Source of the DNA: a virus | Taxonomy: Duplodnaviria > Caudoviricetes | Virus record (IMG/VR): IMGVR_UViG_3300044709_000203 | Coordinates: 1 to 35,025 of that record | DNA: 35,025 bases | Direction: 5' to 3' (one strand) | In this document: positions 1 to 17,672 of the stretch, piece after piece | Numbering within the stretch: the stretch's first letter is position 1 | How the letters are laid out: the number at the start of each line of letters is the position of its first letter | The notes under the pieces: generated by a model | Database searches by the model: none | The model's input: only the letters and a program-made list of their open reading frames with translations | Told to the model about the DNA's origin: nothing | Made by a program: the position numbers and the translations under genes

Positions 1-261
1 GGCGAACAACTGCACGTACTCGAACAGCGCTGCGTCGTCGACGATCGAGAGCGTCCCGGCGTGTTCGAGGCGATCGCACATCCGCTCCCACTCGGCGAGC
101 TCGGCGCCGGCGAGCGGCCGCGGCGGAGTCGGTCGACCCTTCGGTGGCGCCAGCGTTTCGAGGTGAGCGTGGCGATCGGCGCGGTACGTGCCCTCGATCC
201 GGTGCTCTCGTGCCGACTTGGCGTTGTGGCCGCCGGAGCGCTGCCCCTTAACGCCTGCCAT
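1..261 (-). CDS. terS: Terminase small subunit (P27-like), second copy, 3'-truncated by the window edge
   Basis: Not in the ORF track. Manual translation from ATG 261 gives MAGVKGQRSGGHNAKSAREHRIEGTYRADRH...EWERMCDRLEHAGTLSIVDDAALFEYVQLFA, a clear paralog of 15816..16391; it lies downstream of an HNH gene and a cos-like site. Confidence 0.88.
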   Translation of the reverse strand, partial: MAGVKGQRSGGHNAKSAREHRIEGTYRADRHAHLETLAPPKGRPTPPRPLAGAELAEWERMCDRLEHAGTLSIVDDAALFEYVQLFA

Positions 262-285
262 TGGTACAACCCGCTAGAATTTTTT

Positions 286-367
286 TCATTTTGCTGCCAA
301 CGTCCGAATTTGCCTCCCGCGGACTCGCGCGCGGCCACCGGAGGGACTTTTCGACCCCCCTACCCCC
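286..367 (-). other. cos-like packaging initiation site (second element)
   Basis: Minus strand GGGGTAGGGGGGTCGAAAAGTCCC...GCGCGAGTCCGCG...AGGCAAATTCG...CGTTGGCAGCAAAATGAAA between HNH and TerS; matches 16434..16515 block by block. Confidence 0.65.
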
Positions 368-752
368 AATCCTCCGAAACTGGTGCAGGCTGCTGCCTGC
401 TCGTCGTCGGCTCGCGTCCGAATCCACCCTCGGCCGCGATTCCCTTCTTCGCGTTGCATCGCTTGCAGCTCGGTGCCCAGTTGCTCGGGTCCCAGAACAG
501 CGCGCGGTCTCCCTTGTGCGCGCGGCGATGGTCGACGAGCTGTGATGCCGCGCCGCAGTACACACATGTGGGATGCACGCGAAGGAAGTCCTTGGACGTG
601 CGTCGCCATTTCGCATCGTAGAGATGTTGATGTGTTCGCACGAACCGCGCCGCGCGCTCTTTCTTCGAGCAGCTCGCGCAGAATCCGCGGTGTGTTCCGC
701 GGCCTGAACATGCCGGCGTGCGACACGGCCCCTTCGGCGCGAGCGGGCTCAT
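360..752 (-). CDS. HNH endonuclease (terminase-associated, HK97 gp74-like), second copy
   Basis: CVYCG...VDHRRAHKGD...SNWAPSCKRCNAKK motif; N-terminus PLAPKGPCRTPAC resembles 16727..17089. Confidence 0.88.
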   Translation of the reverse strand: MSPLAPKGPCRTPACSGRGTHRGFCASCSKKERAARFVRTHQHLYDAKWRRTSKDFLRVHPTCVYCGAASQLVDHRRAHKGDRALFWDPSNWAPSCKRCNAKKGIAAEGGFGREPTTSRQQPAPVSEDWG

Positions 753-1069
753 CGCGAGAACACTCGAATCAGCGGCGCATGCTCACCGCTCGGGACGCGG
801 TTTCCGACATCGGTCAGACGAAATCGCAAACGGAATGGTGAGCCTGAGACGTAGAAGTCCGAGCTACTCGGATTCAACACCAGCTCGCCGATCTCGCCGT
901 TGGTGAGCGTGAGCTTGCCGCTGCTGTCGAACACGGTCACGCCGTTCGCGTCTTCCAGTACCGCCTGAATTCGCAGTCCGAGAATGTCGAGGCCGAGACC
1001 GTCCGCTTTCAATGTGAACGGCAGCGCGCCGGTCCAGCCTTCAACGATTTCCAGTGGCGCGTGAATCAT
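749..1069 (-). CDS. Small beta-sandwich protein, BppU N-terminal/Ig-like virion-protein-like
   Basis: Pattern G.T.ALPFTLKADG..DILGLRIQAVLED...TNGEIGELVL..SSSDF..SG.FRLRFRLT; coupled by 4-bp overlaps to both neighbours. Confidence 0.5.
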   Translation of the reverse strand: MIHAPLEIVEGWTGALPFTLKADGLGLDILGLRIQAVLEDANGVTVFDSSGKLTLTNGEIGELVLNPSSSDFYVSGSPFRLRFRLTDVGNRVPSGEHAPLIRVFSR

Positions 1070-1344
1070 CTGAGCGTCGCGGTCTCCGGCGTGAGCTGCC
1101 GCGTGAGCTGGATCGTCGTTTCAGATTCGCCGGCCCACTTCCGCGCCAGGCGCTCGACGGCTTCGCGTGTGAATCGGACTGCGCGTAAGCCGGGAATGCG
1201 AACGGGATTCAGAATCCCTTCACGAACCCAGATGAAGATCTGTCGCTCGCTCACGCCGAGAAATGCGGCGACGTCACGTACGCGCAGCATGAACGGCTCG
1301 ACCGCTGGGCGCGGCGCCTGAGCGTCTGATCTACGCCGCGGCAT
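1066..1344 (-). CDS. Excisionase/AlpA-like helix-turn-helix protein
   Basis: MLRVRDVAAFLGVSERQIFIWVREGILNPVRIPG..VRFTREAVE; start re-assigned to ATG 1344. Confidence 0.8.
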   Translation of the reverse strand: MPRRRSDAQAPRPAVEPFMLRVRDVAAFLGVSERQIFIWVREGILNPVRIPGLRAVRFTREAVERLARKWAGESETTIQLTRQLTPETATLR

Positions 1345-1540
1345 CGGTTTTCTCCAACGATGATCGGCGGCGTTCGGCGAGTTGTTGCACGGTCGCGCGT
1401 TCGAAGATGCGCCAGCCGCTCGCTGTGCGAAATGCCAACGGCAGCGCGCCGCGACTCTCCATCTCGCGCACGCCATTGGGCGTGATGTCGAGCAGCTTCG
1501 CGGCTTCCGATACGGTGAGGAATCTCGAGTTCTGATCCAT
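1331..1540 (-). CDS. MerR/excisionase-like HTH DNA-binding protein
   Basis: FLTVSEAAKLLDITPNGVREMESRGALP..RTASGWRIFERATV; purine-rich RBS (GAAGGGA) upstream. Confidence 0.82.
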   Translation of the reverse strand: MDQNSRFLTVSEAAKLLDITPNGVREMESRGALPLAFRTASGWRIFERATVQQLAERRRSSLEKTDAAA

Positions 1541-1585
1541 TCCCTTCGTTCCTTTGTTGTTTTACGCGCGCGGGGGAAAGGCGGG

Positions 1586-1677
1586 AAAAAAACAAAAGGC
1601 CCGTCCCCCCGCGCGTTTGGGCCTCTGCGCGGTGAACGGGCCTCTTCCGATCTGCTGACTCAGAGAGTAACTGGTGT
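1586..1677 (-). promoter_or_regulatory. Structured leader / terminator-like hairpin with GAGGCCC motifs (copy A)
   Basis: Minus strand ACACCAGT...CAGATCGGAAGAGGCCCGT...GCGCAGAGGCCCAAACGCGC...ACGGGCCTTTTGTTTTTTT; stem plus U-run, homologous to 11610..11699. Confidence 0.6.
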
Positions 1678-1755: not shown

Positions 1756-1886
1756 TTTGTGACCAACTTTGTGACCATTGTGTCCTCAGCGTCGTTCAGA
1801 TCGATGCGTGTTCATGCGGTCCGACTGAGTTTCCACGTCGAACGCCTGATCGGAACCTATCGTGTTGATTCTCTTCACGTTTAGGT
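1756..1886. mobile_element. Putative attachment-site junction (arm-type direct repeats plus dif/core-like imperfect palindrome)
   Basis: TTTGTGACCA at 1756-1765 and 1768-1777 (degenerate third copy at 1778-1785); imperfect inverted repeat ACCTATCGTGTTGA-TTC-TCTTCACGTTTAGGT at 1855-1886, 15 bp from the stop of the LamG gene. Confidence 0.45.
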
Positions 1887-1901
1887 CTCGCTGCGTCGCG
1901 T

Positions 1902-3872
1902 TCATCCTGAGAACTCCACGGTGCGCAGGATCCCCGCCGCGAGCGGCGCCGATGCGGTCCGTAACGCGTAATGGGCGGCCACGCGCGCCCCGGGCAGCGC
2001 GGCGGCGTACAAGGCGACCTCATCGATCCGGCCATTAAAGCCTGATCCCGCGACCTGTGAATAACGACCGATCACGAAACGATCCAGTGTGCCGACCAGA
2101 TCGACCGCGCCGCTGAGCCCTGCCAGCGTCCCCACCTGCACACCATTGACGTAGGCGATGATCGTGGCACCGTCGTAGGTGACCACCACGTGATGCCAGG
2201 CGCCGGCGACGACCGCATTCGGCGCGGATGTCAGCTGCTGCTGACTGCCGCCAATCTGCAGTGAGACCGAGAGCGCGCCAGTCGGCAGCACGCTGACCCA
2301 GTTGTGCGATTGAAACGCGGTGGCGATGAGCGTGCTTTGAGTCGGTTGCGCAAGCGTCGCAGGATTTCCCCAGGCTTCGAGCGTCACCGCACTGCTGACA
2401 GAGCCGCCGACCGGGTTGAAGATCACGGTGATGCGTGTGGTATCCGCTCCGTCGAACAGCATCGACGTCGTGCCATCCGCCAACGCGCCAGGCTGGCCGA
2501 GTGTGATGCCCGTCGCGAAGAGTGAGCCATCATGACCGCCACCGCCGATGTCCTTGGCGATGAGGCCCGTCAGCTCGTTCAGGCGCCAATAGGCCGTCGG
2601 ACCATCCGCCAGGATCGCTGCTTGATAAGCGTCAACCGTGGTCGCGACGACGAGCGTGCGCGTGACGCCGCGACTCATGACCGTGCGGAGCACGCCATCG
2701 ACGACCGTTCGCGCCGGTCCAGTCGCCACCGTCGCGCGCACCGGCGCGCGCGACGTCACCGTCGCGACGATGATGTTGGCCGGGAGCTCGGCGCCGCCTA
2801 TGACGCGCGGCGCCGGCGCGATGAGGGCGACGGTGCTCGGTTGAGTCCCACCGGACGCGCTGTCGATGGCGACCGACCCTGGGACGAGGGTCGCTGTGGG
2901 TGCCGATACCGCGACCGTCTGCGCGCCCGCGTTCAGGCGCGTCTCGCTCAGCCGAATCGCCGTCGGCGCGGTGATCGTGACGACGTTCGCGCCAGCCGCT
3001 CGTGTGACGGCGGTGACGGTGCGCGTCGCCACCGGCGCCGTGACGGCGATCGTCTGCGTCCCAGCCGGCAGGGCGGCCGTCGCGATCCGTGTCGCCGTCG
3101 GCGCGGTGATGACGACGAGGTTCGTGCCAGCGGCCAGCGTCTTCAGAGCCAGCCGGACGGCCGGCGGCGCCGAGATCGCGACCGTCTGGATTCCAGCCGC
3201 CCGCGTGACGGCGCCGCTGACGACGGTCGGCGCCGGCGCGGCGAGGGCAATCGTCTGGACGCCGGCGGCGAGGGTCGACGCCTGGCTGATTCCCGCTGGC
3301 GGCGCTTTGATCGCAATCGTGTTCGCGGCAGCGGTCAGGGTTCGGACGCCCGCCGCGGCCGACGCGCTCGGTGCGGTGATCGCAATCGTCGTCGCACCAG
3401 CCGGCACCTGCGCCGCACCAGCGCTCAGCGACGCCGTGGGCGCCGTGATCGCGATCGCGCTGGTGGACGCCGAAAGGACCTTGCCGGTACGGATGGCCGC
3501 CGTCGGCGCCGTGATGGCGAGCGTCGTCGTCCCAGCCGGCAGCGATCGCGCGCCAGGCGTCAGCGTGGCGGGTGGCGCGGTGATGGCGATCGTCGTCGCG
3601 CCCGCGCTCAGCGCTCGAGCACCGGGTGCGAGCGTGGCCGTCGGCGCCGTCAGCGCGATCGTGTTGGCGCCGGCGGCAATCGTGACGGCGCCGGCGCTGC
3701 GTTGCGCCGTCGGCGCCGCGATCGCAATCGATTGTGATCCCCCGCCAAGCAGGACCGCGCCAGCGAGCAGCGCCGCAACAGGCGCCGAGATCGCGAGTCG
3801 AGCCGGTCCGGCCGAGACCTGCTGGCTGGAGGTGCCGGCGTAGTCGTAGTAGATCGGAAAAATGAGGCGCAT
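1902..3872 (-). CDS. Ala/Thr-rich repeat protein with C-terminal LamG/concanavalin-A-like domain (fibre/adhesin-like)
   Basis: About a dozen ~25-aa repeats (L.AG..TIAITAP.A); C-terminal AYWRLNE..G...SMLFDG...WHHVVVTYDG...YVNG...FNGRIDEVALY LamG signature. Confidence 0.82.
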   Translation of the reverse strand: MRLIFPIYYDYAGTSSQQVSAGPARLAISAPVAALLAGAVLLGGGSQSIAIAAPTAQRSAGAVTIAAGANTIALTAPTATLAPGARALSAGATTIAITAPPATLTPGARSLPAGTTTLAITAPTAAIRTGKVLSASTSAIAITAPTASLSAGAAQVPAGATTIAITAPSASAAAGVRTLTAAANTIAIKAPPAGISQASTLAAGVQTIALAAPAPTVVSGAVTRAAGIQTVAISAPPAVRLALKTLAAGTNLVVITAPTATRIATAALPAGTQTIAVTAPVATRTVTAVTRAAGANVVTITAPTAIRLSETRLNAGAQTVAVSAPTATLVPGSVAIDSASGGTQPSTVALIAPAPRVIGGAELPANIIVATVTSRAPVRATVATGPARTVVDGVLRTVMSRGVTRTLVVATTVDAYQAAILADGPTAYWRLNELTGLIAKDIGGGGHDGSLFATGITLGQPGALADGTTSMLFDGADTTRITVIFNPVGGSVSSAVTLEAWGNPATLAQPTQSTLIATAFQSHNWVSVLPTGALSVSLQIGGSQQQLTSAPNAVVAGAWHHVVVTYDGATIIAYVNGVQVGTLAGLSGAVDLVGTLDRFVIGRYSQVAGSGFNGRIDEVALYAAALPGARVAAHYALRTASAPLAAGILRTVEFSG

Positions 3873-6098: not shown

Positions 6099-6119
6099 GA
6101 CTGCGTCTTCTCCTCCGTG

Positions 6120-6791
6120 TTACGGCTTGCCGTAGGCGTACACGATGTTTCCCGACAGGCGCTGCGACCCGTTCTGCGCGAGGCAGAGGTCATCGCCGAC
6201 TTTCGTGGTGACCATGATCGAGCCGTAACCGACGCCCTGCGCGAAGCCGCCGTTGGCCGCGTACGACTCACCATTCGCCGCGGTCGTCGAGCCGCTGACC
6301 GCGAGCGTCCCGGTGCCGCACGTCGCGCCTGTACCTTCGATGAACGACGGAATTTCCGCCGCGGCCGCCACGACGCGCGCAGCACAGACGAAGATGCGCT
6401 CACCCGGATGGGCGACGACCAGGCGCGTCGACGCGGTCTGCGAGATCGCGACGTTGCCCTTGTCGCTGCCGAGGCACGGATCCAGCGGTCGCTCAGAGAC
6501 CGGGAAGACCTTGAGCGCGTCGCCGACCTGGCCGACGGGCCGACCGAACGTGCCGCTGACGGGTCGTCGCACCGCCGCACTCGCGACAAGCGAGGCCTCC
6601 AGCGATTTCAGTTCATTGAGAATGCCGCCGAGCAGCGCATCGTCCGGCGCGATCCGCACGATGGTTTGCGCCGGCGCGGTCGTGCGCTGCGCAAACACCG
6701 GCCGTGCGAGGTCGGCCGCACAGATCGCCACGAACGCGGCCGCCATGAGCACGCCGACGACTCGAATCCGCGGACTTGTGTGTTCAGACAT
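6120..6791 (-). CDS. Secreted hypothetical protein with Cys-containing beta-sandwich
   Basis: Hydrophobic N-terminus ending VFA|Q; IFVCAARV...ATCGTG...DDLCL. Confidence 0.68.
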   Translation of the reverse strand: MSEHTSPRIRVVGVLMAAAFVAICAADLARPVFAQRTTAPAQTIVRIAPDDALLGGILNELKSLEASLVASAAVRRPVSGTFGRPVGQVGDALKVFPVSERPLDPCLGSDKGNVAISQTASTRLVVAHPGERIFVCAARVVAAAAEIPSFIEGTGATCGTGTLAVSGSTTAANGESYAANGGFAQGVGYGSIMVTTKVGDDLCLAQNGSQRLSGNIVYAYGKP

Positions 6792-7104
6792 AGCCCCACA
6801 GCTTTCCCGTCACCGTCTGCTTCGTGCACGACCACTTCAACCCGACGATCGGCATGAACGGCCATTCCGGCGGCGGCCGGAGAATGTCGTGCGCCGGGAT
6901 CAGGAGATCCGGCAGCACCGCTTTGTCGGACCCGTCCGTGAGCAACACATACGCGTCGTCGTCGCCTTCGTTGGCGAAACTGCCGCCCATCAGCCAGAAC
7001 GTCGACACGCTGTCGGCGTTCGGCGGATTGGTCGGCGCCGCCGGCACCGTCGTAAAGCCGGAGTCGAACGACGGCGCCGCGGCGCTGCTGAATGGCCAGC
7101 CCAT
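6784..7104 (-). CDS. Small beta-rich hypothetical (decoration/spike-like)
   Basis: Overlaps the next gene; GC3-biased codons; alternating beta pattern. Confidence 0.6.
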   Translation of the reverse strand: MGWPFSSAAAPSFDSGFTTVPAAPTNPPNADSVSTFWLMGGSFANEGDDDAYVLLTDGSDKAVLPDLLIPAHDILRPPPEWPFMPIVGLKWSCTKQTVTGKLWGYV

Positions 7105-7113
7105 CGCGCCTGC

Positions 7114-7596
7114 TTACGACGTCGTCCCGAGTTTCAGCGCGCCGCCGGCCGACGTCGACGCCCACTGAATCGTGATGTCGCCGCCGTTGGTCGGCGTGTC
7201 CGTCACGTCATAGAACGCGATGAGGTCCTGGCCGCTGTCGCCCGTCGTCGCGGCCGCCGTCGTCGGCGCCGAGCTCGAGTAGCGATAGAGGACCGCGCCG
7301 CCGACGGTGCCGCCCGCGGCCAGCGCGGCGAACGTCACATCGTTGGCATCGAGCCCCGCGAAGTCGTTGCCGTCATCCTCGAAGAGCGCGACGCCGGCGA
7401 GCGATTGCCGCGCGTAGCTCCCGACGCTCAACTCGTAGGTGAACGGATCGCTGGTGCTGCTCGTGCCGTCCTTCACGGTGTTCTGATCGGGATCAAACAC
7501 GTACTGCGTGGTGACCAGCATGAGCCGCAACGCCAGGCCGGACAGATCGAACTTGCCGGCGACGTACTTTCCGCGGTTGTACACTCCGTTCGCCAT
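7114..7596 (-). CDS. Phage minor structural (tail-fibre-base-like) protein
   Basis: MANGVYNRGK...LRLMLVT...YELSVGSYARQSL...LDANDVTF...LIAFYD...TNGGDITIQW pattern, common in phage structural modules. Confidence 0.65.
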   Translation of the reverse strand: MANGVYNRGKYVAGKFDLSGLALRLMLVTTQYVFDPDQNTVKDGTSSTSDPFTYELSVGSYARQSLAGVALFEDDGNDFAGLDANDVTFAALAAGGTVGGAVLYRYSSSAPTTAAATTGDSGQDLIAFYDVTDTPTNGGDITIQWASTSAGGALKLGTTS

Positions 7597-7689
7597 GACC
7601 TATGCCCCTTCGTCAGCGCACGGACCGCAGTCCGTGCGGCCGCATGGCCGTTTCCGTCGGCCGAATGACGGCGTACTCGTGAACGTCGT

Positions 7690-8337
7690 CTATCGTTCGA
7701 CGACGAGGATCGCGTTCAACCGATCGACCGGCGGCGTCACCGGGACGAGACGTGCCTCGCCGCCGGCGAGCGAGCCGATCCATCTGAGCGCGCTCCGATA
7801 CTCGTGTGCCCATTCGCGATACCCCGATGCGTTCTGGACGGGCGTCCCCACGCGGCCCTCGAGCGTCATCGGCTCCGCGAGAATGACGGCGCGCGTCGCG
7901 AGCCGACCCATCTCGTAGAGCGCCAGGTCGAGATCCGCCGGCGCGACATACGCCAAGCTGTAACAACTCAACACCACGTCGAACGATCCCGACGCGAGCG
8001 ACGCAGTGCCATCCGGGAACCGACACGCATTCAGCTGGACGCGGTCGCTGAGCGCCTTGTCCCGCAGCCAGCGCCGGCCGGCCATGATCGCGTCAACATT
8101 CACGTCGATGCCCGCGGCCCGCAGCTGCGGATCCGCCTCGGCGAGCTTCACGAGGTTCGGGCCGCAGTGGCAGCCGACCTCGAAGAGGGTCTCGACCTGC
8201 AGCTCGCGGACAATCGACGCGATGACGGTTCGGTGCCGCGCGGCGAGACTCTTCTGGTAGTTCGCGACCCACTGCCCCGCCTGGCCATCGCGCGGCCGCG
8301 CCCACCAGTTCGCCGCTTCCTGACTCGCGACGTGCAT
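7690..8337 (-). CDS. Class I SAM-dependent methyltransferase
   Basis: LFEVGCHCGPNL (motif I), AGIDVN, SFDVVLSCYSLAYV, VILAEP; start ATG 8337 overlaps the upstream TAA. Confidence 0.85.
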   Translation of the reverse strand: MHVASQEAANWWARPRDGQAGQWVANYQKSLAARHRTVIASIVRELQVETLFEVGCHCGPNLVKLAEADPQLRAAGIDVNVDAIMAGRRWLRDKALSDRVQLNACRFPDGTASLASGSFDVVLSCYSLAYVAPADLDLALYEMGRLATRAVILAEPMTLEGRVGTPVQNASGYREWAHEYRSALRWIGSLAGGEARLVPVTPPVDRLNAILVVER

Positions 8338-9116
8338 TACGTCACCACCGGTGTCGGCGCGCCGCGCTCGCTGAACTCGCGCAGCTTCAGCACGTTGTCG
8401 TACGCCTGGATGGCGCCGTCGATCGTGTTGAGCGTCGCGACGGTTTCGGCGTGCTTCTTCTCCATCAGGGCTTTGTGCTTCGTAATCGTCTCGATGAAGT
8501 CGCCGCGGCCGCCGACCGGCGCCTCGAAGCCGTAGAGATGCCCGGACTTCAGGAGCGCAGCGCCTTCGGCGATGACCACGGTCCGACCCATCCCGCGTGC
8601 GAGGCCGATCAGGTACTCGGTGTTCGGCCGCTGGTTCGGGTACTCGACGTCCGAAGCGAGATCGATCCCGTAGAGGCCGATCCACTCGTAGCCCTCGGCG
8701 ATCGCGAGCGCGAGCATGTAGCCGATCGTCGATGTGAAGTACCGACCGAACGTGGCGATCATCTGCTCGAGCGGATACGTCACCGCAGCCGGGAAACGCC
8801 CGTCGCAGAACTGCGGCTGCATGTAGATCGGTTTGCCCGGCTCCTGCCGCGACAACCACTCGAGATGCCGCTTCTGCTCGCCCTCGCTCAGATCCCGCTT
8901 CGTGACGCCGAGCGTGGCGTCGTCGTGGAGCTCGAACCAGCGATTCCATCGCGGGATGTATTTCCAGAGTTCGTTCAAGGCCCAGATCTCAACCGACGGA
9001 TCGGCGAACGGGGCCTGCTTCCAGCTCTCGGCAAAGCCGACGAGCGCGACCTTTTTGCCGCGACCCTCCTGGGGTTCGTGAGTGGTCTGGCCCTCGCGGG
9101 GCTCCTCATGCGTCAT
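8337..9116 (-). CDS. Putative Maf/DUF115/GT29-like (sialyltransferase-fold) transferase
   Basis: KKVALVG..S...EIWALN near the N-terminus and TSTIGYMLALAIAEGYEWIGLYGIDL later, a layout resembling sialyl-motif-containing and Maf-like Rossmann proteins; C-terminal coiled coil. Confidence 0.55.
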   Translation of the reverse strand: MTHEEPREGQTTHEPQEGRGKKVALVGFAESWKQAPFADPSVEIWALNELWKYIPRWNRWFELHDDATLGVTKRDLSEGEQKRHLEWLSRQEPGKPIYMQPQFCDGRFPAAVTYPLEQMIATFGRYFTSTIGYMLALAIAEGYEWIGLYGIDLASDVEYPNQRPNTEYLIGLARGMGRTVVIAEGAALLKSGHLYGFEAPVGGRGDFIETITKHKALMEKKHAETVATLNTIDGAIQAYDNVLKLREFSERGAPTPVVT

Positions 9117-9145
9117 GTGATCTCTCGCTCCTTCTGAATCCCGAG

Positions 9146-9421
9146 TTACGTCGTTTCGTTCATGCGCAGCACGTCGACGACGATGCTGCCGGTCGATGTC
9201 CCGTAGAGCGCGTCCCACGGCTGCAGCGTGATCTGCAGCGGGATGTCGCCCGTCGAGAGCTGGTACCCGCTGGTCGTCACGCCGGAGCTACCGAGGTACA
9301 CGTTCGCGGCGCCGCGGTTGCGCACGATCACGCGCAACGATCCGAAGCCGGGCCCGCCTGGGACGTTCGCGATCGCCGTCGGACTCGTGGTCAGCGCGAT
9401 GGTCAAGCCCTGGACGGCCAT
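9146..9421 (-). CDS. Small beta-sandwich virion decoration-like protein
   Basis: LRVIVRNRGAANVYLG..GVT..GYQL..G...ALYG pattern; AAGGAG RBS. Confidence 0.6.
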   Translation of the reverse strand: MAVQGLTIALTTSPTAIANVPGGPGFGSLRVIVRNRGAANVYLGSSGVTTSGYQLSTGDIPLQITLQPWDALYGTSTGSIVVDVLRMNETT

Positions 9422-9424
9422 CGC

Positions 9425-9577
9425 CTACTCCTTCTTCGCTTTCGCCGACGTCGGCGCCGGCGCCGCCGCTTCGGCATAGCCGGTGCGAATCAATCGCTCC
9501 GCTTTCTCGTCCTTCAGCTCGAGGATCGCCCCGGCGGCATCGTTGGCCACCGAAGCGAGTAGTCGCACTCGCATCAT
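9425..9577 (-). CDS. Small post-capsid protein (50 aa)
   Basis: Not in the track: MMRVRLLASVANDAAGAILELKDEKAERLIRTGYAEAAAPAPTSAKAKKE; GGAG RBS; typical small gene after a capsid gene. Confidence 0.65.
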   Translation of the reverse strand: MMRVRLLASVANDAAGAILELKDEKAERLIRTGYAEAAAPAPTSAKAKKE

Positions 9578-9589
9578 GTCGTCTCCCAT

Positions 9590-9628
9590 CGACGGCGCCG
9601 AACGCTGTGCAGCGATTCGGCGCCGTCG
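9590..9628 (-). terminator. Intergenic hairpin
   Basis: CGACGGCGCCGAA-CGCTG/CAGCG-TTCGGCGCCGTCG stem without a U-run; could be a stabiliser or processing site. Confidence 0.45.
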
Positions 9629-9640
9629 TCCGAGAAGGTG

Positions 9641-10144
9641 TTACTGCGCCGGCAGTTCGTCGGCGCCGCCGAAGACGATCGCCACGCCGACGGCGACCGA
9701 TTCGCCGCTGGAGCTCGTGGCGAGTGTGATCGGCGGAATCTGGACGCGCAGCCATCGCTTCGCGCCGTTCAGATTCACGGACTGCTCGACTTCGAACGGC
9801 TCGCCGCCGGTCGTGTTCTTCGAGTTGCCGGCCGACGTCGCGCCGACGGTGACGGTCGCCGGCACGGTGCCGGTCGAGTAACTCGTCCACGGGCCGCCGG
9901 ACGAATCGGCGTGCTGGAAGTTGAGGCTGACGCCGGCGGTCAGCTGCGACGACGAGCCGGTGAACAACCCGGCGACGATCGCTTTGCAGCTGTAGTACTG
10001 CCGCTGGCCGGCGAGCTGGCGATCGATGGCGACGCCGTCCTGCGTCGTGGGCGCCGCGGCTGACGATCCGAGAATGGTGGCGACCAGGGCGCTCTTGCCC
10101 TTGATCACCGCGCCGATGTTGAAGCTGTACGAGAGACTGCTCAT
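9641..10144 (-). CDS. Putative capsid cement/decoration protein
   Basis: Immediately after the capsid gene; DGVAIDR...FQHADSSGGPW...KRWLRV...IVFGGADELP pattern; AGGAG RBS. Confidence 0.6.
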   Translation of the reverse strand: MSSLSYSFNIGAVIKGKSALVATILGSSAAAPTTQDGVAIDRQLAGQRQYYSCKAIVAGLFTGSSSQLTAGVSLNFQHADSSGGPWTSYSTGTVPATVTVGATSAGNSKNTTGGEPFEVEQSVNLNGAKRWLRVQIPPITLATSSSGESVAVGVAIVFGGADELPAQ

Positions 10145-10181
10145 GATCTGAACTCCTGCCTCAAAAAACGGTGAATCGCGA

Positions 10182-10208
10182 CAGGGCCGATGCCAGGCAT
10201 CAGCCCTG
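10182..10208 (-). terminator. Hairpin downstream of the major capsid gene
   Basis: CAGGGCCGATGC-CAG-GCATCAGCCCTG; a T6 run lies 13 nt further along the minus strand. Confidence 0.5.
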
Positions 10209-10223
10209 CGTGGTCAACTGCGA

Positions 10224-11579
10224 TTACGCGCCGTAGGTGACCGCCTCGATCACGGCCGCACTGGACGCGTGACGCATCGCGAAGTCGGTCTTGCGGATCA
10301 ACCGCACGACGGACTCATCGCGGCTCACGCCCGAACGGAGCGTGCCCGACGCATCCGCGTAGGTCGCGTTCTCGATGATCTCGAGTTCGAGCGTCGCCGA
10401 GTCGCCGATGAAGCACTCGCTCATCTCGACGTAGTAGTGTTCCGTCGCGTTGGCGCCGCCGCCGAGCGTGATCGGAATGTTGTTGTCGCGATAGACGCGC
10501 CCGCCGCCGAGCGTGGCGCCGTCGTCCTGCTGCATCTGGGGGAATGCGAAGTTGCTGTTCCCGTCGACGAGGTCCCAGCCCATGTACTCCGCGCTGCGCG
10601 AGTGCAGGAACCACGCGCGCCGCACGAGCGGCGAGTTGGCGTTGTTGACCTTGTTCTTCGCCGTCCGGATGTCGGTGCGGACGTTGGCGAGCGTGGTGCC
10701 GGCGGAATTGGCTCGGCCGGCGGCGCCGACCCAGTTGTAGATTCCCTTCGGCTGCCCGGCGAGGCCCGTGCCGCGCAGGAACGCGACGTCCTCGTCGTTC
10801 GCGGCCACGCGGATCATGTCGTCGCGCACGACGCGCTCGGTGTCGAGGCTCGAGTTGCGACGCAAGTCGTTGCTGATCGGCACGAGCACCATGTACTTCT
10901 TCTCGACCAGCTTCACTTGGCCGGTGCTCATGTCGTTCGGCGTGGCGTTGTCGCCTTCGGATCCCATCCACGTGCCGCTGGCGCCGCCCGTGAGCTTCGG
11001 GATGGTGGCGGATCCGTTCACGAGCGTGATCGAGCGCGCGCCGGCGCGACGCACCTGGGCGGTCGCGCGCAGCAACTCGATGAATTCGGCGCCGACGAAG
11101 TTCTCGGCGATGAACGCGCCGCCGGACGTGAAGACCGACTGCTGCATCGCGCGGCATTGCGGCGAGTTCTCGCCGTAAGTCTGACGCGCCCACTTCACGG
11201 CTTCGGGCTGTTGCCACGCGCCGAAGCGCATGCGCGCCGCAACGATGGCACCGAGCGCATCGCCCTTCTCGTACGCGGGAGCGCGATCGCGGACTGTGGG
11301 ATGCTGCGGCGGGTCGTTCGGATCCGCTGCCGCCTGTGACGCCGGCACCTCGTACCGCTTTGCGTCGTCGACGGCCTTGCGCGCCGCCTTCGCGCGCGCG
11401 GTGGCGGCGAGGTCCTCTTCGATGCGTTTCGCTTCGGCCAGATGCGATTTGACCTCGGCGTCTTCCTCCGGAGTCAGCCCGCGACCCTCTTCCTCGGACA
11501 CGGCGACGATGCGATCGGCGGCGTCGAGCGCCGCTTGGCGTCGCGCCTTCAGGTCCTTGTCGTTATCCACTTGCGGCAT
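10224..11579 (-). CDS. HK97-fold major capsid protein with N-terminal coiled-coil (delta) domain
   Basis: Position after portal and protease; GGAFIAE..FIELLR, VPISNDL, AFLRGTG..GQPKGI, DFAMRH motifs; GAGG RBS before ATG 11579. Confidence 0.93.
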   Translation of the reverse strand: MPQVDNDKDLKARRQAALDAADRIVAVSEEEGRGLTPEEDAEVKSHLAEAKRIEEDLAATARAKAARKAVDDAKRYEVPASQAAADPNDPPQHPTVRDRAPAYEKGDALGAIVAARMRFGAWQQPEAVKWARQTYGENSPQCRAMQQSVFTSGGAFIAENFVGAEFIELLRATAQVRRAGARSITLVNGSATIPKLTGGASGTWMGSEGDNATPNDMSTGQVKLVEKKYMVLVPISNDLRRNSSLDTERVVRDDMIRVAANDEDVAFLRGTGLAGQPKGIYNWVGAAGRANSAGTTLANVRTDIRTAKNKVNNANSPLVRRAWFLHSRSAEYMGWDLVDGNSNFAFPQMQQDDGATLGGGRVYRDNNIPITLGGGANATEHYYVEMSECFIGDSATLELEIIENATYADASGTLRSGVSRDESVVRLIRKTDFAMRHASSAAVIEAVTYGA

Positions 11580-11609
11580 GGCCACCTCTCGGGGGCCAGC
11601 CCACAAAGG

Positions 11610-11699
11610 AAAAGGCCCCATCACTGCGCTCCGGGCCTCTTGCGCGTGATGGGGCCTCTCCGAAATCTGACGGCCTCTCAGGGCCTGTCCTACTGGTGT
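11610..11699 (-). promoter_or_regulatory. Structured capsid-gene leader / attenuator-like hairpin with AGGCC repeats (copy B)
   Basis: Perfect 12-bp stem AGGCCCCATCAC/GTGATGGGGCCT followed by UUUU on the minus strand; four AGGCC motifs; lies between the Com-like gene and the capsid gene. Confidence 0.62.
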
Positions 11700-11717
11700 C
11701 CGACGGCGCGTGTTACG

Positions 11718-11900
11718 TCACGTCGAGACTCCGATCCGATAGTTCATGAAGTCGCACTTCGAGCATTTCACCTCGACGACCTTGCCCGGCCTCAGCGCCG
11801 CGATGTCGATACGCAGCAGCATGCGACCGCAGCCGTTGCAGCGCATCGCCTCGAGGCTGCGCAGCTGCCCGTCGCGAATCGCCGGCGCTACGGACGCCAC
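11718..11900 (-). CDS. Mu Com-like zinc-ribbon protein
   Basis: MRCNGCGRMLL...VEVKCSKCDFMN (two CxxC pairs with Com-family spacing). Confidence 0.78.
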   Translation of the reverse strand: MASVAPAIRDGQLRSLEAMRCNGCGRMLLRIDIAALRPGKVVEVKCSKCDFMNYRIGVST

Positions 11901-12592
11901 GCCTTCGCCTTGTTCACGGCTTCACGGGCTTCCTCGCGCCGCTGCTTTCCAGCATCATCATCGACGACGGGAGTCGTCGCGGTCCGTTGCGCCGCGGCAT
12001 CAGCCGGCTGCTGCTGCACAGCCGCCGCCTTCGCGGCCGCCGCTTTGTCGGCGCCGCCCAATTCTCCAGCGATGTTCTTGCTCCGCGCGCTGACGGTGGT
12101 CTCTTCGTACGCCGGAAACGTCACGGGCCCGACGTCATACACGCGCGCACGCTTGATCGTGCGCAATGGTAGTTTCGCGGGATCGTCACGCGTCCACGTT
12201 TCGTCGTCGTCGTTCTCGACTGTGAAGGAAAAGCTGCTGCCGGTGACATCGCGGCGCTTGATCTTGGCGCCCACCGACATCGCCTCGGGATCGTCGGGAT
12301 TCAGCCGCGCCACATAGAGGAGGCCGGTTTTGTCCTCGCTGACGTCAGCGGTGCGCGCGGCATTGCGACCCAGCACGTAATTGGGACTGTGATTGAACAG
12401 CACGCGGATGTCGTCGTCTTGGACCGTGTCGCTGAACGCGCCCGGGGCAATCACTTCGCGAAAGTAGTCGCCGATCACGGTCTCGACGCCGTAGAGCGCG
12501 CCGTACCCCTCGATCGACGGCGACGCGCCGTCTTTCGCGCGCACCTCGATCAGGGCCGAGGTCACCATGCGGCGTTCGATTTCGCGTGCCAT
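11888..12592 (-). CDS. HK97-family prohead protease
   Basis: IEGYGALY, FREVIAPGAF, LFNH, GSSFSF, DVGPVTFPAY; AGGAG RBS upstream of ATG 12592. Confidence 0.93.
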   Translation of the reverse strand: MAREIERRMVTSALIEVRAKDGASPSIEGYGALYGVETVIGDYFREVIAPGAFSDTVQDDDIRVLFNHSPNYVLGRNAARTADVSEDKTGLLYVARLNPDDPEAMSVGAKIKRRDVTGSSFSFTVENDDDETWTRDDPAKLPLRTIKRARVYDVGPVTFPAYEETTVSARSKNIAGELGGADKAAAAKAAAVQQQPADAAAQRTATTPVVDDDAGKQRREEAREAVNKAKAWRP

Positions 12593-12594
12593 CG

Positions 12595-13926
12595 CTACAT
12601 CACTCCTTCGGGTTCGGAGACGGTCGGTTTCGGCGCCGGCGTCGGCTCCGGCTCCGTCACGACAGGCAGACCATTGCCCGTCACCGGCGCGTAGTTCTGC
12701 GGCATCCAGAACACCTGGCCGGCGCCGCCGTCGATCGGATTGAGGTCCTCGAGCTCGCGGATCTCGTCGCCGTTCAACCAGCCGTTCTGACGCGCCACCG
12801 CGTACGCATCGAATCGCGTCTTGATGTCGCCGCGCACGAGCGCGTTCACCACGAACAGCGCCGTGTGCGTATTGAAACTCTTGCGGCTGAGGAGATCGCG
12901 CGCGATGACCTGTTGCCACAGCTGAAACCACGGCATCATCGTGATGTTCAGGAACCCCCGCATCTGTTGCTCGATCCCGGATCCCCAGCTCGTGTCCTTC
13001 GTTTGGTTCTGGATCATGAACAGCGGCACGCGATAGATCCGAGCTGCCGATTCGACTTGCGCGCCGCGCAGCTTATCGAGCTGCGATTTCTCCGGGTCGA
13101 CGCCGACGACGTGAATCTGAATGCCTTCTTCGAGGATCGCGAACTTGTTGGCTTTCTTCGCGCCCATAAACTTCTCGAGCCAGGAGCGCCGGATGTTTTC
13201 CTTGGCCGCCGGCGTGAGCGTTTTGGGATGCGTCGCGATGATGCCGGGAATCGCCCCGTTGCCGAACCAGGCGCCGACGTAGTCCTCGGCCGCCTTCGTG
13301 ATCCCGAGCGACTCGCGATTGATCAGGAGCGGCGATCGCCCGTCAAGACCGTCGTCGCTGTTGATGTGGAGGTGCAGGATGTCCGGACGATCCGGGTTGT
13401 GCTCCCACACCTGATAATCGCCGCGTCCCATCCAGTACGAGAACACCTTGCGGCCGAGCGCGTTCCGTTCGACGAACATCCGCGCCGGGTGCAGCGGCCA
13501 GAGCGCGGTCACATCGCCGCGCCGATCGCGCTGAATCTGCGCATACGCGCGGCCCCAGCCAGCGGTATGGCGCGTCAGGATTTCTTTCCCCTGGTACGCG
13601 GTCAGCTCGGGGTTGAACGCGTCGTGCAGGAGGTAATAGAGCGGGTGCTCGACGTCCGGCTGCTTGCCGCCCTCTGGCAGCAGACGATTGATCTTGGTCG
13701 GCAGCTGGCCCACCGTCTCGCTGAGCACGCGCTGGCAGGCGTAAATCGCTGGCAGGCCTTCAGCGATCGGCACGCTGATGTCGACGCCGGCGGTGGTCTT
13801 CCCGCCGTTCAGCAACGACGTCAGCCACGATGCGGGATTCGTGAGCGTCCCGCCGTTGTCGTACTCGCCGCTGTTGGCGGGCACGATGTGATCACGCCGT
13901 TCGAAGAATGAAGCCAGGCGTCCCAT
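12595..13926 (-). CDS. HK97-family portal protein
   Basis: AIYACQRVLSETVGQLP, GLDGRSP, FGNGAIPG, ILEEG, ARIYRVP, NEIR-like GDEIRELEDL. Confidence 0.95.
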   Translation of the reverse strand: MGRLASFFERRDHIVPANSGEYDNGGTLTNPASWLTSLLNGGKTTAGVDISVPIAEGLPAIYACQRVLSETVGQLPTKINRLLPEGGKQPDVEHPLYYLLHDAFNPELTAYQGKEILTRHTAGWGRAYAQIQRDRRGDVTALWPLHPARMFVERNALGRKVFSYWMGRGDYQVWEHNPDRPDILHLHINSDDGLDGRSPLLINRESLGITKAAEDYVGAWFGNGAIPGIIATHPKTLTPAAKENIRRSWLEKFMGAKKANKFAILEEGIQIHVVGVDPEKSQLDKLRGAQVESAARIYRVPLFMIQNQTKDTSWGSGIEQQMRGFLNITMMPWFQLWQQVIARDLLSRKSFNTHTALFVVNALVRGDIKTRFDAYAVARQNGWLNGDEIRELEDLNPIDGGAGQVFWMPQNYAPVTGNGLPVVTEPEPTPAPKPTVSEPEGVM

Positions 13927-14081
13927 CAGGACTTCTTCACCTCGACTCGTTGCTGCAGCCGCGCGCCGGCGCCGAATAGCACGGCACCACTCACGATCAA
14001 GGCGCAACCGAGTCCGAACACACGGCCAACGCCGGCGACGAACAATCCAAAGCCGATGAGAACCAATAGATCGGCAGCCAT
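13926..14081 (-). CDS. Small two-helix membrane protein between TerL and portal
   Basis: Not in the track: MAADLLVLIGFGLFVAGVGRVFGLGCALIVSGAVLFGAGARLQQRVEVKKS; TGATG overlaps at both ends. Confidence 0.7.
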   Translation of the reverse strand: MAADLLVLIGFGLFVAGVGRVFGLGCALIVSGAVLFGAGARLQQRVEVKKS

Positions 14082-15889
14082 CAGACCGTGAAGATCTCCG
14101 CGCCTTCGGCTTCGTAAATTGATCGACCGCCCGACGGATTGCGCACGATGGCCTGATCGATTGCCATGATCAGCGCGACGATGCCGTCGATCTTTTCGCC
14201 GGCCGCGTCTTTGTCAGGGCGGATCTCTTTGTTGCGGCCATGGCGCACGACGAAGTTCGATGCCATCCAGGACAGAATCGCGTTGCCGCCGCACAGGAAC
14301 AGCGCCTCGGCGATCAGCTCGAGCGTCCGCTTCGTCGCTTCGTTCAACTGAAAACCCTGCGGCGTTGGCACGACGTCGATGCCGCGGCCCTGGAGGTACT
14401 GCGCCATCTGATGCGCGAAGCGCGGGTCATACGCCAGCGAGCGCACACCGGACTCGAGGCAGTCCTGCTCCACGGCCTCCTGGACCGCGGCATAGTCGGT
14501 CGTGTCGCCTTCGGTCACCTCGAGCAGGCCGGCGCGGCGCCATTCGTCGTACGGCCGATTCGGGTATTTCTCGAGCGCCGCCTGCGGCAGCCAAAAGCGG
14601 CACTTCACGGGGATTCGGCCGTCATCGAGAATCCAAATCCGGATGGATGCGCACAAGTCATCGCTCTGTCCGAGGTCGAGGCCCGCGAAGCAGGGCGCGT
14701 CAACGAGCTCCGCGTCCGAGACGGTGCCCTGGCACAGCGCCCATTTCGCCTGGTCGATCGCGCGCGTGTGCGCGTTCGTCCAGACGCAGAAATTCAGGCG
14801 GAGCACCGTATTGGTCTCGGATGGAATGTTCTTGGCGTTCTCGACCTGGCGCCGGAGGTACTCGGGCGTGATCGTGACGCCGAGCAGCGGATTCGCTTTG
14901 ATCCAGCACGACTCATCGACGAGCGGATCGTCGCCCTCGTCGAGCGCGCAGACATACGCGAAGAAGCGATCGTCGACGACCGTCTGCTGGAGCACGCGTT
15001 CGGCGTGCTGATGCAGCTGCCACGCGATGGACGTGCGATCGAAGCCGCTGTTCGTGATTTTGACGGCGAGCGGCTGCTTGCGGAATTTGAAGCCGGCCTG
15101 CAGCTTGTTGATCGTGTCGGCCGACGGATGCTCATGGACCTCGTCGATGAGCGCCATGTGCGGCCGCTTCCCGGACTTCGATCCCTGGTTCCGCGAGTAG
15201 GGCCGGAAAAACGACTTCGTCGCCGCGTACGAGATGGTGCCGATCCCGCGCGGTTCGCCGGCCGGCGTGCGCTTCAGCAGCTCGCAGAGCTCGGGTGACA
15301 CGTCGACCATGCGTTCGGCATCGCGCATGAGAATCGCCGCCTGGTCGAGATCGACGGCGGCCGGATAAATCTCCGCCGCGTACTCGTTGTCGACCACCAG
15401 GCCGTAGAGCCCGAGCCCCGCGACAGTCGGCGTCTTCGCGTTGCCCTTGCCCATCTCGATGTAGGAATCGCGAAACCGGCGATAGCCGTCAGTACCGAGC
15501 CAGCCCGTCAGCGCGCCGACGATGAACGTGAGCGCCGGCTCGAGCAGAAACGGCTTCGGATTGCCGGCCTCATCGAGCGTGTCCGGGAGCCGCAGCACAT
15601 GCTCGAAGAACCCGATCGCGACGTCGGCCGCGTCCGCGCTGAACGACCAGCCTCCTGGATGGCGCGTCGGCGATGCGGCCAGCGCACGGTCGCGGAGATG
15701 TCGCTCGCAGGCGAGACGCACCCACGGCCCAGCGACGATCGGCTCGCCGGCGGTGGCATCGCCGAGCACACGTCGCGCATACAGATCGACGCGGTGGCCG
15801 AACGGCGCCCAGATGCTAGGCGCCGAATCGGACGACGCGCGCTTTCTGCTGGAGCGCGGCGAGCGAGTTCTTGGGCTGCTGTGGTTCAT
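14081..15889 (-). CDS. terL: Terminase large subunit (HK97/Terminase_1 type)
   Basis: RRFR, Walker A-like MGKGNAKT, Walker B ALIDEVHEH, WIKANP, nuclease GLDLG, KIDGIVALIMA. Confidence 0.95.
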   Translation of the reverse strand: MNHSSPRTRSPRSSRKRASSDSAPSIWAPFGHRVDLYARRVLGDATAGEPIVAGPWVRLACERHLRDRALAASPTRHPGGWSFSADAADVAIGFFEHVLRLPDTLDEAGNPKPFLLEPALTFIVGALTGWLGTDGYRRFRDSYIEMGKGNAKTPTVAGLGLYGLVVDNEYAAEIYPAAVDLDQAAILMRDAERMVDVSPELCELLKRTPAGEPRGIGTISYAATKSFFRPYSRNQGSKSGKRPHMALIDEVHEHPSADTINKLQAGFKFRKQPLAVKITNSGFDRTSIAWQLHQHAERVLQQTVVDDRFFAYVCALDEGDDPLVDESCWIKANPLLGVTITPEYLRRQVENAKNIPSETNTVLRLNFCVWTNAHTRAIDQAKWALCQGTVSDAELVDAPCFAGLDLGQSDDLCASIRIWILDDGRIPVKCRFWLPQAALEKYPNRPYDEWRRAGLLEVTEGDTTDYAAVQEAVEQDCLESGVRSLAYDPRFAHQMAQYLQGRGIDVVPTPQGFQLNEATKRTLELIAEALFLCGGNAILSWMASNFVVRHGRNKEIRPDKDAAGEKIDGIVALIMAIDQAIVRNPSGGRSIYEAEGAEIFTV

Positions 15890-16391
15890 CCGTTCCGTTC
15901 GTCCGTACCCGACTGCGCGACGCCGGCGTCAAGCCAAACTCCACGAGGTACTGCCGGAGCGCCATGTGTCCCTGCCGCAACTGCACGCGCTGTTTCGATG
16001 CGAGCTGCTCGAGCGTCACGATCCGATCGATCGCGCCGAACAACGATTCGCCCGTCAGCCGCTTCGCTTCGTTCTTTAACTCCGCGGCGAGGCTCAGCAG
16101 CTCGCTGTCCTTCGCCTTGATCGCCTGCGTCTCCGCGAACAACTGCACGTACTCGAACAGTGCCGCGTCGTCGACGATCGACAAGGTCTGCGACTGCTCG
16201 AGTCGCGTGACCATCCGGTCCCATTCGGCCTGTTCGACGTCCGTCAACGGCGCCGGCGGCCGCGGGATGCCCTTCGGCGGCTCCGGGTTCGTGATGCCCT
16301 CGTGCCGCGTCCGGTTGAACGTGCCTTCCAGCTGGTGCTGCTCGACGTGTTTCGCGTTCCGGCCGCCCGACCGGCCCTTCACGCCAGCCAT
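15816..16391 (-). CDS. terS: Terminase small subunit (P27 family)
   Basis: MAGVKGRSGG.., PP..L...EWDR, C-terminal EFGLTPASRSRV; directly upstream of TerL. Confidence 0.92.
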   Translation of the reverse strand: MAGVKGRSGGRNAKHVEQHQLEGTFNRTRHEGITNPEPPKGIPRPPAPLTDVEQAEWDRMVTRLEQSQTLSIVDDAALFEYVQLFAETQAIKAKDSELLSLAAELKNEAKRLTGESLFGAIDRIVTLEQLASKQRVQLRQGHMALRQYLVEFGLTPASRSRVRTNGTDEPQQPKNSLAALQQKARVVRFGA

Positions 16392-16433
16392 CGCGTTCGC
16401 TGCACTCCCCCGGCAAAGTCATTCGCCGCCGAA

Positions 16434-16515
16434 TTTCATTCGCTGCAACGCCACGAAAATGCCTGCGGCGCGGTCCGCGCGCCCCGGCGTGGGGACTTTT
16501 GATCCCCCCTACCCC
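16434..16515 (-). other. cos-like packaging site of the main phage
   Basis: Minus strand GGGGTAGGGGGGATCAAAAGTCCCC...GCGCGGACCGCGCC...AATGAAA between HNH and TerS, the canonical cos position in HK97-like phages. Confidence 0.68.
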
Positions 16516-16670
16516 TCCGCGTCGACGTCGCTGTCGCGCGGTGCGCTCGTCTCATCGCGCTCATCGCTCGTCGTGCAGGCTGGGCACGTCCACCGCACCA
16601 CACGTAAAGCTCGAAGGAAGCGCGCGTCGTTGTAATTGAGGTGCAGCGGATGACGGCAGCCGCTGCTCAT
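16509..16670 (-). CDS. Small hypothetical protein (53 aa, CxxC)
   Basis: MSSGCRHPLHLNYNDARFLRALRVVRWTCPAC...; not in the track. Confidence 0.35.
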   Translation of the reverse strand: MSSGCRHPLHLNYNDARFLRALRVVRWTCPACTTSDERDETSAPRDSDVDAEG

Positions 16671-16726
16671 CTCTTAATCGAGAATCACGACCAGCGATTC
16701 GAGCAGTCTCCACAACAGGTCAGCCA

Positions 16727-17089
16727 TCACTGTCTCCCCCACCCGCTCTGTTCGAGTGCTGTCCGCCGTGAGTGGTGCGGCTTGCACTTCGGTCTCAAGT
16801 TGCTGTCCGCATGAATCTGCTTCCACGACCAGCCACGACGTCGCGCGTCCTTCACCGTCACGATGTGGTCAGCTTCGGTTGCTGGTGCGGGACATTCATC
16901 ACAGGTCGGATGCGCTGCGAGAAATTCGGCGCGTCGCTCCGGCCAATTCGTCGACGTGCCGTACCCACGCTGCGCGCTCGTTCCACGCGCGCGTTCTGCG
17001 CGGAGCTCGCACTCAACGCAGAGGCCTCGACGGATTGCTCGACCCGGACATCGTGGTGTACGACATGGACCTCGAGGAGCAAGCGGCAC
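16727..17089 (-). CDS. HNH endonuclease (terminase-associated)
   Basis: SAQRGYG..W..RR.EFLAAHPTCDEC...ADHIV...NLRPKCKPHHSRRT; start probably GTG 17089 by analogy with 360..752. Confidence 0.9.
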   Translation of the reverse strand: MPLAPRGPCRTPRCPGRAIRRGLCVECELRAERARGTSAQRGYGTSTNWPERRAEFLAAHPTCDECPAPATEADHIVTVKDARRRGWSWKQIHADSNLRPKCKPHHSRRTALEQSGWGRQ

Positions 17090-17264
17090 TGGTAATAAAA
17101 AGGTGGGGACCGTTCGACATGGCGCGGCGCTCAGTCGCAACCGAGCGAGCGATTGTTCGCAGGTCCCGTTAGCTCAGGGCCGAGGATCGCTGAGCCGGCG
17201 TGCGCGAGGAAGGGGGCTCCGGCCGAAATGGATCCTGTTCCCGCTCAATGACCGTTATTCCGTC

Positions 17265-17498
17265 TTACGTCGTCGTCGCCAAACGCTGCCGCACTTCGAA
17301 CTCTTCAATCACGGCAAGCTCGATGCGGCGCAGCCGCGGCGCTAACACGATCCACGGCAACGAGAATTTGTTCAGTGTTTTCAGATCGATGCGCCAGCGC
17401 GCGCACAGATCGCCAGGGGTGAGGAAATCAGGATCGGTGAGGCGCCGCTGCTGGCCGCTCGTATTCGGGCGCGTGGGATCGCGGCGATCGATGGGCAC
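17265..17498 (-). CDS. Small HTH DNA-binding protein
   Basis: FLTPGDLCARWRIDLKTL...RRIELAVIEEFE; start probably GTG 17498. Confidence 0.68.
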   Translation of the reverse strand: MPIDRRDPTRPNTSGQQRRLTDPDFLTPGDLCARWRIDLKTLNKFSLPWIVLAPRLRRIELAVIEEFEVRQRLATTT

Positions 17499-17672
17499 AC
17501 CCTTATGCCTTCTTGCAGTGATAGGCTGCTCGTGCGTCAGGAAAGCGCTCTTCGCTGCTTCGGGCGGGTTGGTCGCTGGGTTGATGCCATAGAGAAGTGG
17601 GTGACCAAGGCATCCGAAGCCGGCCCGCTCGAGCCCCACCATCGAAAGGCGATAGCGACCCAGCCGTGACGC

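Follow-up and report, generated by a model that had tools for sequence, protein, structure and literature searches.

A GAGGCCC-bearing RNA hairpin in an HK97-type phage and in a satellite-type element inserted in it: a candidate switch read by a Com-like zinc ribbon

A terminator-like hairpin with the word GAGGCCC both at the base of its stem and in its loop occurs twice in a 35,025-nt stretch of viral DNA (IMG/VR record IMGVR_UViG_3300044709_000203; hereafter the window). One copy, site A, lies between a gene for a small Com-like Cys4 zinc ribbon and the major capsid gene of an HK97-type phage, and the other, site B, precedes the excisionase-like genes of what, judged from its sequence, is a helper-embedded satellite. 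We consider it probable that the Com-like protein opens such hairpins within the helper phage, and we lean by a small measure toward the full helper-sensing model, in which the satellite would eavesdrop on this helper protein. The features on which these readings rest are as follows.

11718..11900, minus strand: Com-like Cys4 zinc-ribbon gene, 60 aa from the GTG at 11900 or 42 aa from the ATG at 11846, with a CxxC...CxxC pattern.
11672..11685, minus strand: small upstream hairpin GGCC-CUGAGA-GGCC with a loop like that of the Com site in Mu mom (folding, and comparison with the 19-mer Mom RNA in the available part of PMC6483171).
11605..11658, minus strand: site A terminator-like hairpin, with the word at its base (11652-11658) and in its 12-nt loop (11630-11641), followed by the U-tract UUUUCCUUU.
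11577..11598, minus strand: hairpin covering the capsid ribosome-binding site; its 5' strand contains a UGGCCC word (folding; the same hairpin occurs in L089 and L151).
10224..11579, minus strand: major capsid protein gene, HK97-type (PF05065, E 2.5e-28; PHROGs).
1586..1644, minus strand: site B terminator-like hairpin, with the word at its base (1638-1644) and in its loop (1619-1625), followed by the U-tract UUUUGUUUUUUU.
1566..1585, minus strand: near-perfect complement of the site B 3' arm, downstream of it (predicted fold).

The initial annotation had described both elements on the minus strand, with GAGGCCC retained at the stem base and in the loop. Each was found where it had been placed, and at both sites the word sits at the stem base and in a loop of 12 nt (at site A, 11633-11639). 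The further claim that the stems differ while pairing is retained also held, in that the loop-closing helix covaries. ACACCAGT, which had been counted as part of the element, is not conserved: a near-identical sibling has ACACCAGC instead, and the 8-mer is missing from L089, L090, and L151. Folding gave z = -5.25 for the site A hairpin and z = -4.11 for the site B hairpin, and in neither case was any of 200 shuffles equally stable. Local alignment of the two sites scored 61, against a background maximum of 37 over 1456 subwindows of this DNA. GAGGCCC alone shows no enrichment across the window (9 occurrences against 5.9 expected); the non-random part is the paired arrangement of the words, spaced 19 bp apart at both sites, and not the word itself. 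Both sites have the anatomy of an intrinsic terminator, a stable GC-rich hairpin followed by a U-tract, and a simple terminator scanner missed them because it allows only 3-8 nt loops. Rfam returned no family match over site A or B and no match at E <= 1 in 5 related loci, and no RNA holder is listed for window 1000-2400.

Two hairpins near site A were absent from the initial annotation. In the small one at 11672-11685 the loop, CUGAGA, is one letter away from the CUGCGA loop of Mu mom; a similar hairpin precedes the tail copy of the RNA in a sibling of the helper, and site B is without one. The other is the hairpin at 11577-11598 over the capsid ribosome-binding site. Site B has a feature of its own in the complement at 1566-1585, which gives a second predicted fold within 1.2 kcal/mol of the first. 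In these predictions, blocking both words led to the alternative fold with a free ribosome-binding site, and with the base word alone blocked, the loop word could take the 3' arm as its partner with little change in energy (-17.1 versus -16.8 kcal/mol).

The late module of the helper runs on the minus strand in the order HNH, TerS, TerL, portal, protease, zinc-ribbon gene, site A, and capsid. A sibling record (G001) matches the window at 99.9% identity over 13350 to 1899, beyond which it runs on into connector and tail genes. Its tail region holds two more copies of the RNA, sites C and D, which brings helper and satellite together to four. Site C has a U-tract and precedes a gene of 148 aa that has no family match and that we read, by position, as the tail tube. 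Site D has no U-tract, its 3' arm contains a ribosome-binding site and start codon, and its predicted minimum-energy fold differs from the word-hairpin layout. On the late-sense strand, 9 of 11 AGGCCC words fall in three intergenic clusters, an arrangement reached in 0 of 20,000 random placements. A possible fifth copy at about 8965-9025 was rejected: it falls inside a coding region, and its folding is no more stable than that of shuffled sequences (z -0.51, 0.25). Directly before the tail copy in L220 (1698-1898) is a small CxH...CxxC protein that matched neither a family nor the Com profile.

The assignment of the zinc ribbon to the Com family was supported through its relatives: the window protein itself has no PF10122 match, and the link to that family runs through proteins related to it. 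A relative 83% identical to it carries the source name 'phage FluMu protein Com', the L113 copy matches a 'gpCom' PHROG (E 1.8e-4), and the window protein matches phrog_6417, a translational regulator, at E 0.0096. A profile built from 7 relatives recovered 223 representatives at E <= 0.001; among the 60 scanned of the 150 profile matches listed, 41 matched PF10122 and 24 passed its cut-off. The four cysteines are invariant, and the structure model of the window protein is a four-strand zinc ribbon (pLDDT 84.5). Searches with it against solved structures and folds gave nothing above background, its atlas matches are unnamed clusters, and cultured phages yielded 4 weak matches (E 0.6). No second Com ORF was found in the window, L122, L141, L154, L220, or L221.

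Com has a known preference against which the RNA can be read. The available part of PMC6483171 describes a selection that yields GAG(N)2CC, mostly in two copies, and reports that Com favors sites in hairpin loops, binds duplex weakly, and binds RNA with two motifs better. GAGGCCC, as a sequence, fits this selection motif. RNA of the cognate type (GAG(N)2CC, or a CC(N)2-3GAG loop) adjoins the Com-like gene at 11672-11685, 11652-11658, and 11633-11639.

To place the two sites within a family we used pattern and protein searches. A first pattern scan returned 83 viral loci, 13 of them with a Com-like ORF upstream. Narrower scans returned 7 viral, 65 metagenome, and 25 genome loci, and these 97 loci merged into 54 clusters. 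A fold like that of sites A and B was present in 6 of the 7 clusters with an adjacent Com and in 8 of the 47 without one (Fisher p 7e-4). Since the search pattern itself demanded the words, nothing follows from their invariance; the evidence lies in loop length and stem. The loop was 12 nt in all ten phage or mobile copies, closed by 4-6 pairs of varying identity. When arms were swapped between nine phage or mobile sequences, cognate arms had a mean energy of -14.3 kcal/mol and swapped arms -7.8 (0 of 20,000 permutations), in a set whose members had been selected partly by fold. The nine cellular copies, drawn from that same partly fold-selected set, gave -12.6 for cognate and -11.8 for swapped arms (p 0.019). 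Covariation by RNAalifold on a sequence-only alignment came out in part: the basal 8 pairs were recovered, and just one of them showed a compensatory change. The covariance model (R1) has 8 pairs only. Word spacing varied from 16 to 23 nt across copies; in cellular copies it was 16-17 nt, and site B, at 19 nt, resembles the phage copies. A U-rich tail followed all 19 copies tabulated, its first four U being set by the search pattern.

A protein-driven search, independent of the RNA pattern, gave 19 loci after two siblings were removed. The word lay directly behind the closest relatives of the protein, with the base-plus-loop layout in L197, L199, and L200, and behind all 8 loci whose next ORF resembles a capsid start by eye. 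Among these capsid-type loci a U-rich tail was present in only 3 (L089, L199, and L200); in L197 a ribosome-binding site lies within the 3' arm, and in L193-L196 no terminator was seen by eye. The GAG(N1-2)CC word was missing within 200 nt in 5 of the 19 loci, the more distant ones. Since the word also occurs without a terminator in some close relatives, read-through may be one of two outputs. A last scan, covering at least 119 viral loci, added L235, with a 12-nt loop before a capsid-like ORF; no further satellite-type copy was found among the 119 viral loci listed. Behind the more distant Com-like proteins of L204, L209, and L210 is a different repeated word with a terminator-like tail, which suggests a changed specificity. 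In the L115 group the RNA is kept while the adjacent Com looks decayed (L157); at L157:6000-6420 the RNA precedes an oxidase, and the upstream Com-like gene has no CxxC pair in three forward frames.

The second element had been called satellite-like, and we could substantiate this: it is a site-specific insert with a duplicated 12-bp core, and both junctions and the empty site are present in public runs. Its features in the window, and the site used by a sister element, are these.

10426..10434, minus strand: 9-bp core, duplicated where the sister element sits in another phage copy (L141 and L154 flanks) and empty in the window.
1899..1910, minus strand: 12-bp attachment core (attL), located where the stop of a LamG gene overlaps the start of the next late gene.
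1757..1785, minus strand: three GG(A/T)CACAA repeats, predicted integrase arm sites; the same repeats occur at the integrase end of the sister element.
1331..1540, minus strand: excisionase-like HTH_17/MerR gene 1 (PF12728, 27.4 bits against a cut-off of 27; TIGR01764 below cut-off).
1066..1290, minus strand: excisionase-like HTH_17 gene 2, start inferred (PF12728, E 5e-8; phrog_66).
749..1069, minus strand: accessory copy of the helper gene that is split at the attachment site, with 48% identity to it (sequence comparison).
360..752, minus strand: HNH endonuclease, 34% identical to that of the helper.
270..366, minus strand: spacer homologous to the helper HNH-TerS spacer, a putative cos by position.
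1..261, minus strand: terminase small subunit, truncated at the contig end and 63% identical to that of the helper.

The late operon of the helper breaks at 1899. The attL junction is bridged by contigs of X2 and X8, is reached in X1 with 30 letters on one side, and is repeated in L122. The attR junction is in X2, with about 3 kb of foreign DNA, and the same loose end is in X1. Both junctions have in common the 12 bp at 1899-1910, and the empty site was seen in X3, G001, L126, and L154. A chimeric assembly at 1899 was rejected on these junction contigs and L122. The helper copy of the interrupted gene matches minor tail/virion PHROGs, and we take it and the accessory copy to be BppU-like. The accessory copy is missing from the X1, X2, L122, and L154 variants. 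In L141 and L154, which have a common assembly prefix, the sister element interrupts the capsid gene in the opposite orientation; it has the RNA and xis genes found in the window element and ends in a 394-aa tyrosine integrase (in L141, PF00589/phrog_1). The ends in L141 and L154 are taken as one element because of the 9-bp duplication and their common GGTCACAA repeats. Only the ends of the satellite were seen, about 2 kb and about 3 kb, with no primase or origin within them. When xis1, the L141 integrase, and HNH served as queries for a complete satellite in viral contigs, only weak matches came back, and a promoter scan of 1-18000 located no sigma-70-like site and hence no satellite promoter. 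A second assembly branch point lies inside the left end of the satellite, at 1792-1821 (X1 and X2), and probably reflects a variant left end as in L154, whose sequence differs beyond about 1846; the L154 difference suggests exchangeable attachment modules.

Genome matches with this fold were all in Acidobacteriota (L167, L179, and L187; L188 just missed the fold rule), and because of these copies we infer a Vicinamibacterales host for the phage. In L167, L187, and L188, Vicinamibacterales-type genomes, a Com-like gene is followed by the RNA and then by genes for a Tat multicopper oxidase, a CusB-type adaptor, and an RND pump (CusA); this arrangement of sequences makes the Com-like gene and its RNA a candidate copper-responsive RNA switch. 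The next start in cellular copies is 24-94 nt away. Site B aligns to the cellular RNAs at about 80% over 50-60 nt. The cellular Com subfamily is patchy, found among 301 genomes sampled from the class in the seed alone, and a relaxed pattern run over 401 genomes of the phylum gave 7 matches against 2 in the control; one of the seven is the seed, and the other six were judged by matched letters. In L179 (5900-6460) and L099 (730-1150) the RNA lies behind promoter-like sequence and before an RHH gene, followed in L179 by HTH_17. No Com adjoins the RNA at these two loci, and none was found in G006 with a single-protein query; the gene before the L179 hairpin encodes an AAA ATPase. L179 and L099 are possibly another element listening to Com.

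We propose the following mechanism. The Com-like protein would bind single-stranded (A/U)GGCCC in the nascent RNA and stop the hairpin from closing. When the protein is missing, hairpin and U-tract would end transcription before the capsid gene (site A), the tail-tube-like gene (site C), and the satellite xis (site B), and at site D, which has no U-tract, the hairpin, like that over the capsid start, would block translation instead. Late in induction the protein would accumulate and occupy both base and loop words. Both words are probably needed, because a block at the base alone leaves the loop word free to pair with the 3' arm in a fold of similar energy, and this need would give the switch a threshold. 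At site B the freed 3' arm would then pair with 1566-1585, leaving the ribosome-binding site open, and Xis would be made. The satellite would excise after helper replication has begun, the late operon would be rejoined, and packaging of the satellite would rely on its own set of HNH, cos, and TerS. That the sister insert is inverted points to a satellite-owned promoter and a diffusible, trans-acting trigger, for which the nearest candidate is the Com of the helper. More tentatively, and with a confidence that falls somewhat short of even, one RNA word read by Com-type zinc ribbons may be a currency common to the copper oxidase/efflux operon of a soil Acidobacteriota host, the capsid and tail gates of its prophage, and a Com-less satellite that senses its helper for excision timing, and it may couple metal status to prophage and satellite expression.

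An alternative trigger for site B would be a host-encoded Com, or one of the satellite's own. The switch would then be real, with the satellite sensing itself or metal stress. We regard this as unlikely. It draws on the cellular loci in L167, L187, and L188, in which Com, RNA, oxidase, CusB, and CusA lie together, on the resemblance of site B to cellular RNAs, and on how little of the satellite is seen beyond its ends. However, the cellular subfamily is as rare as the class sample indicates, site B has the loop length and 19-nt spacing of phage copies and not the 16-17 nt of cellular ones, and both known insertions sit in a Com-encoding phage. Less likely again is mainly translational control as in Mu mom, with the U-tract hairpins terminating weakly or serving processing or stability. 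Translational activation is the only Com action described in the available part of PMC6483171, site D and L197 hide a ribosome-binding site in the 3' arm, a word-bearing hairpin lies over the capsid start, and L193-L196 are without a visible terminator. The U-rich tail of all 19 tabulated copies argues against this reading, allowing that the pattern imposed its first four U, as does the distance to the next start in cellular copies, mostly too far for direct occlusion.

A still smaller chance attaches to site B being a captured piece of the helper late operon, a plain insulating terminator, with induction left to another signal or to flanking late transcription. Helper-embedded satellites capture nearby late genes, cis drive by helper late transcription has been proposed for them (PMC10111431, in the part available), and the element described here holds a captured helper-like gene. 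Yet the loop word of site B is exact although its stems differ from every helper copy, its downstream complement gives rise to another fold, the sister element runs against the direction of late transcription, and similar hairpins precede RHH/HTH_17 genes with no adjacent Com in L179 and L099. That the words are DNA direct repeats for a DNA-binding regulator, with the hairpin an ordinary terminator, we hold to be very improbable: the 19-bp spacing at both window sites and one Com-family entry labelled DNA-binding would fit, but the copies differ in spacing (16 to 23 nt) and agree in loop length and pairing, and the words always lie on the sense strand, ahead of the U-tract.

The predicted logic of the helper-sensing model resembles that of the BglG/LicT antiterminators, which bind a RAT RNA overlapping the 5' arm of an intrinsic terminator, in that a protein binds a nascent RNA element over the terminator 5' arm; here the protein fold is unrelated, there are no PRD domains, and the target is a short repeated word. 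The satellite P4 and its helper P2 cross-activate each other through Ogr/Delta, a small zinc-binding late activator that serves as cue and acts at DNA promoters with RNA polymerase. The use of a helper zinc-binding late activator as cue would be the same in the present pair, whereas the cue would act on RNA.

With Mu Com/mom (PF10122), as far as the available part of PMC6483171 goes, our system has in common a small Cys4 zinc ribbon just upstream of its RNA target, a word that fits GAG(N)2CC, the similar CUGAGA and CUGCGA loops, and a two-site arrangement. The Mu target is a DNA-modification gene, whereas the targets here are capsid, tail, satellite xis, and copper genes; the gene directly downstream of site A encodes the major capsid protein and not a DNA-modification enzyme. 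Unlike in Mu, most copies form part of a terminator-like hairpin whose 12-nt loop contains the word, there are several targets per genome, and the phage is HK97-type and not Mu-like.

The satellite in turn resembles the HE-PICIs (11capE in 50icd), which in the available part of PMC10111431 are likewise tyrosine-integrase elements that insert site-specifically into late genes of prophages, using more than one site (the capsid gene among them), with doubled arm-type repeats on both sides, a helper-like cos, and a captured late gene. From the HE-PICI hallmark set (AlpA, primase, origin, 10-20 kb size, absence of a full structural module), HTH_17 genes are present here, where the satellite ends alone are seen. 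The cases in that part of PMC10111431 come from Enterobacteriaceae, are without exception co-oriented, and have int at the front; in the present case an acidobacterium is the probable host, xis-like genes come first behind the RNA gate, int lies at the far end, and the window insert is co-oriented while the sister insert is inverted. The trigger proposed there is cis late transcription, put forward as a hypothesis, and not a protein-RNA trigger (PMC10111431, same part).

A literature search of limited coverage found no report of Com-type read-through or of satellite sensing of Com; PMC5737381, in the part available, describes 224 RNA motifs. Satellite detection of the helper late phase is known for few systems, and the helper-sensing model, if true, would be an RNA-level mechanism for it. 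Com, described as activating the translation of a single Mu gene, would then also act as a read-through regulator with several targets, in phage, satellite, and cell. The candidate pair, a protein of 42-60 aa and an RNA of 60 nt, lends itself to tests in a reporter strain, with no need to culture the host, and is compact enough for a candidate orthogonal switch.

Other genes of the window deserve mention in their own right. Upstream of HNH/cos, at 17673-24761 on the minus strand, are a NeuB synthase, a methyltransferase, a class III aminotransferase, a cytidylyltransferase, and a GFO/IDH oxidoreductase, a cluster that looks like nonulosonic-acid synthesis, perhaps for the virion or for DNA modification. 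Amid the head genes, at 7690-9116 on the minus strand, is a gene with a SAM methyltransferase domain whose true start is probably near 9116. Finally, 5110-6098 on the minus strand encodes two tandem paralogous small proteins of secreted type that are about 57% identical.
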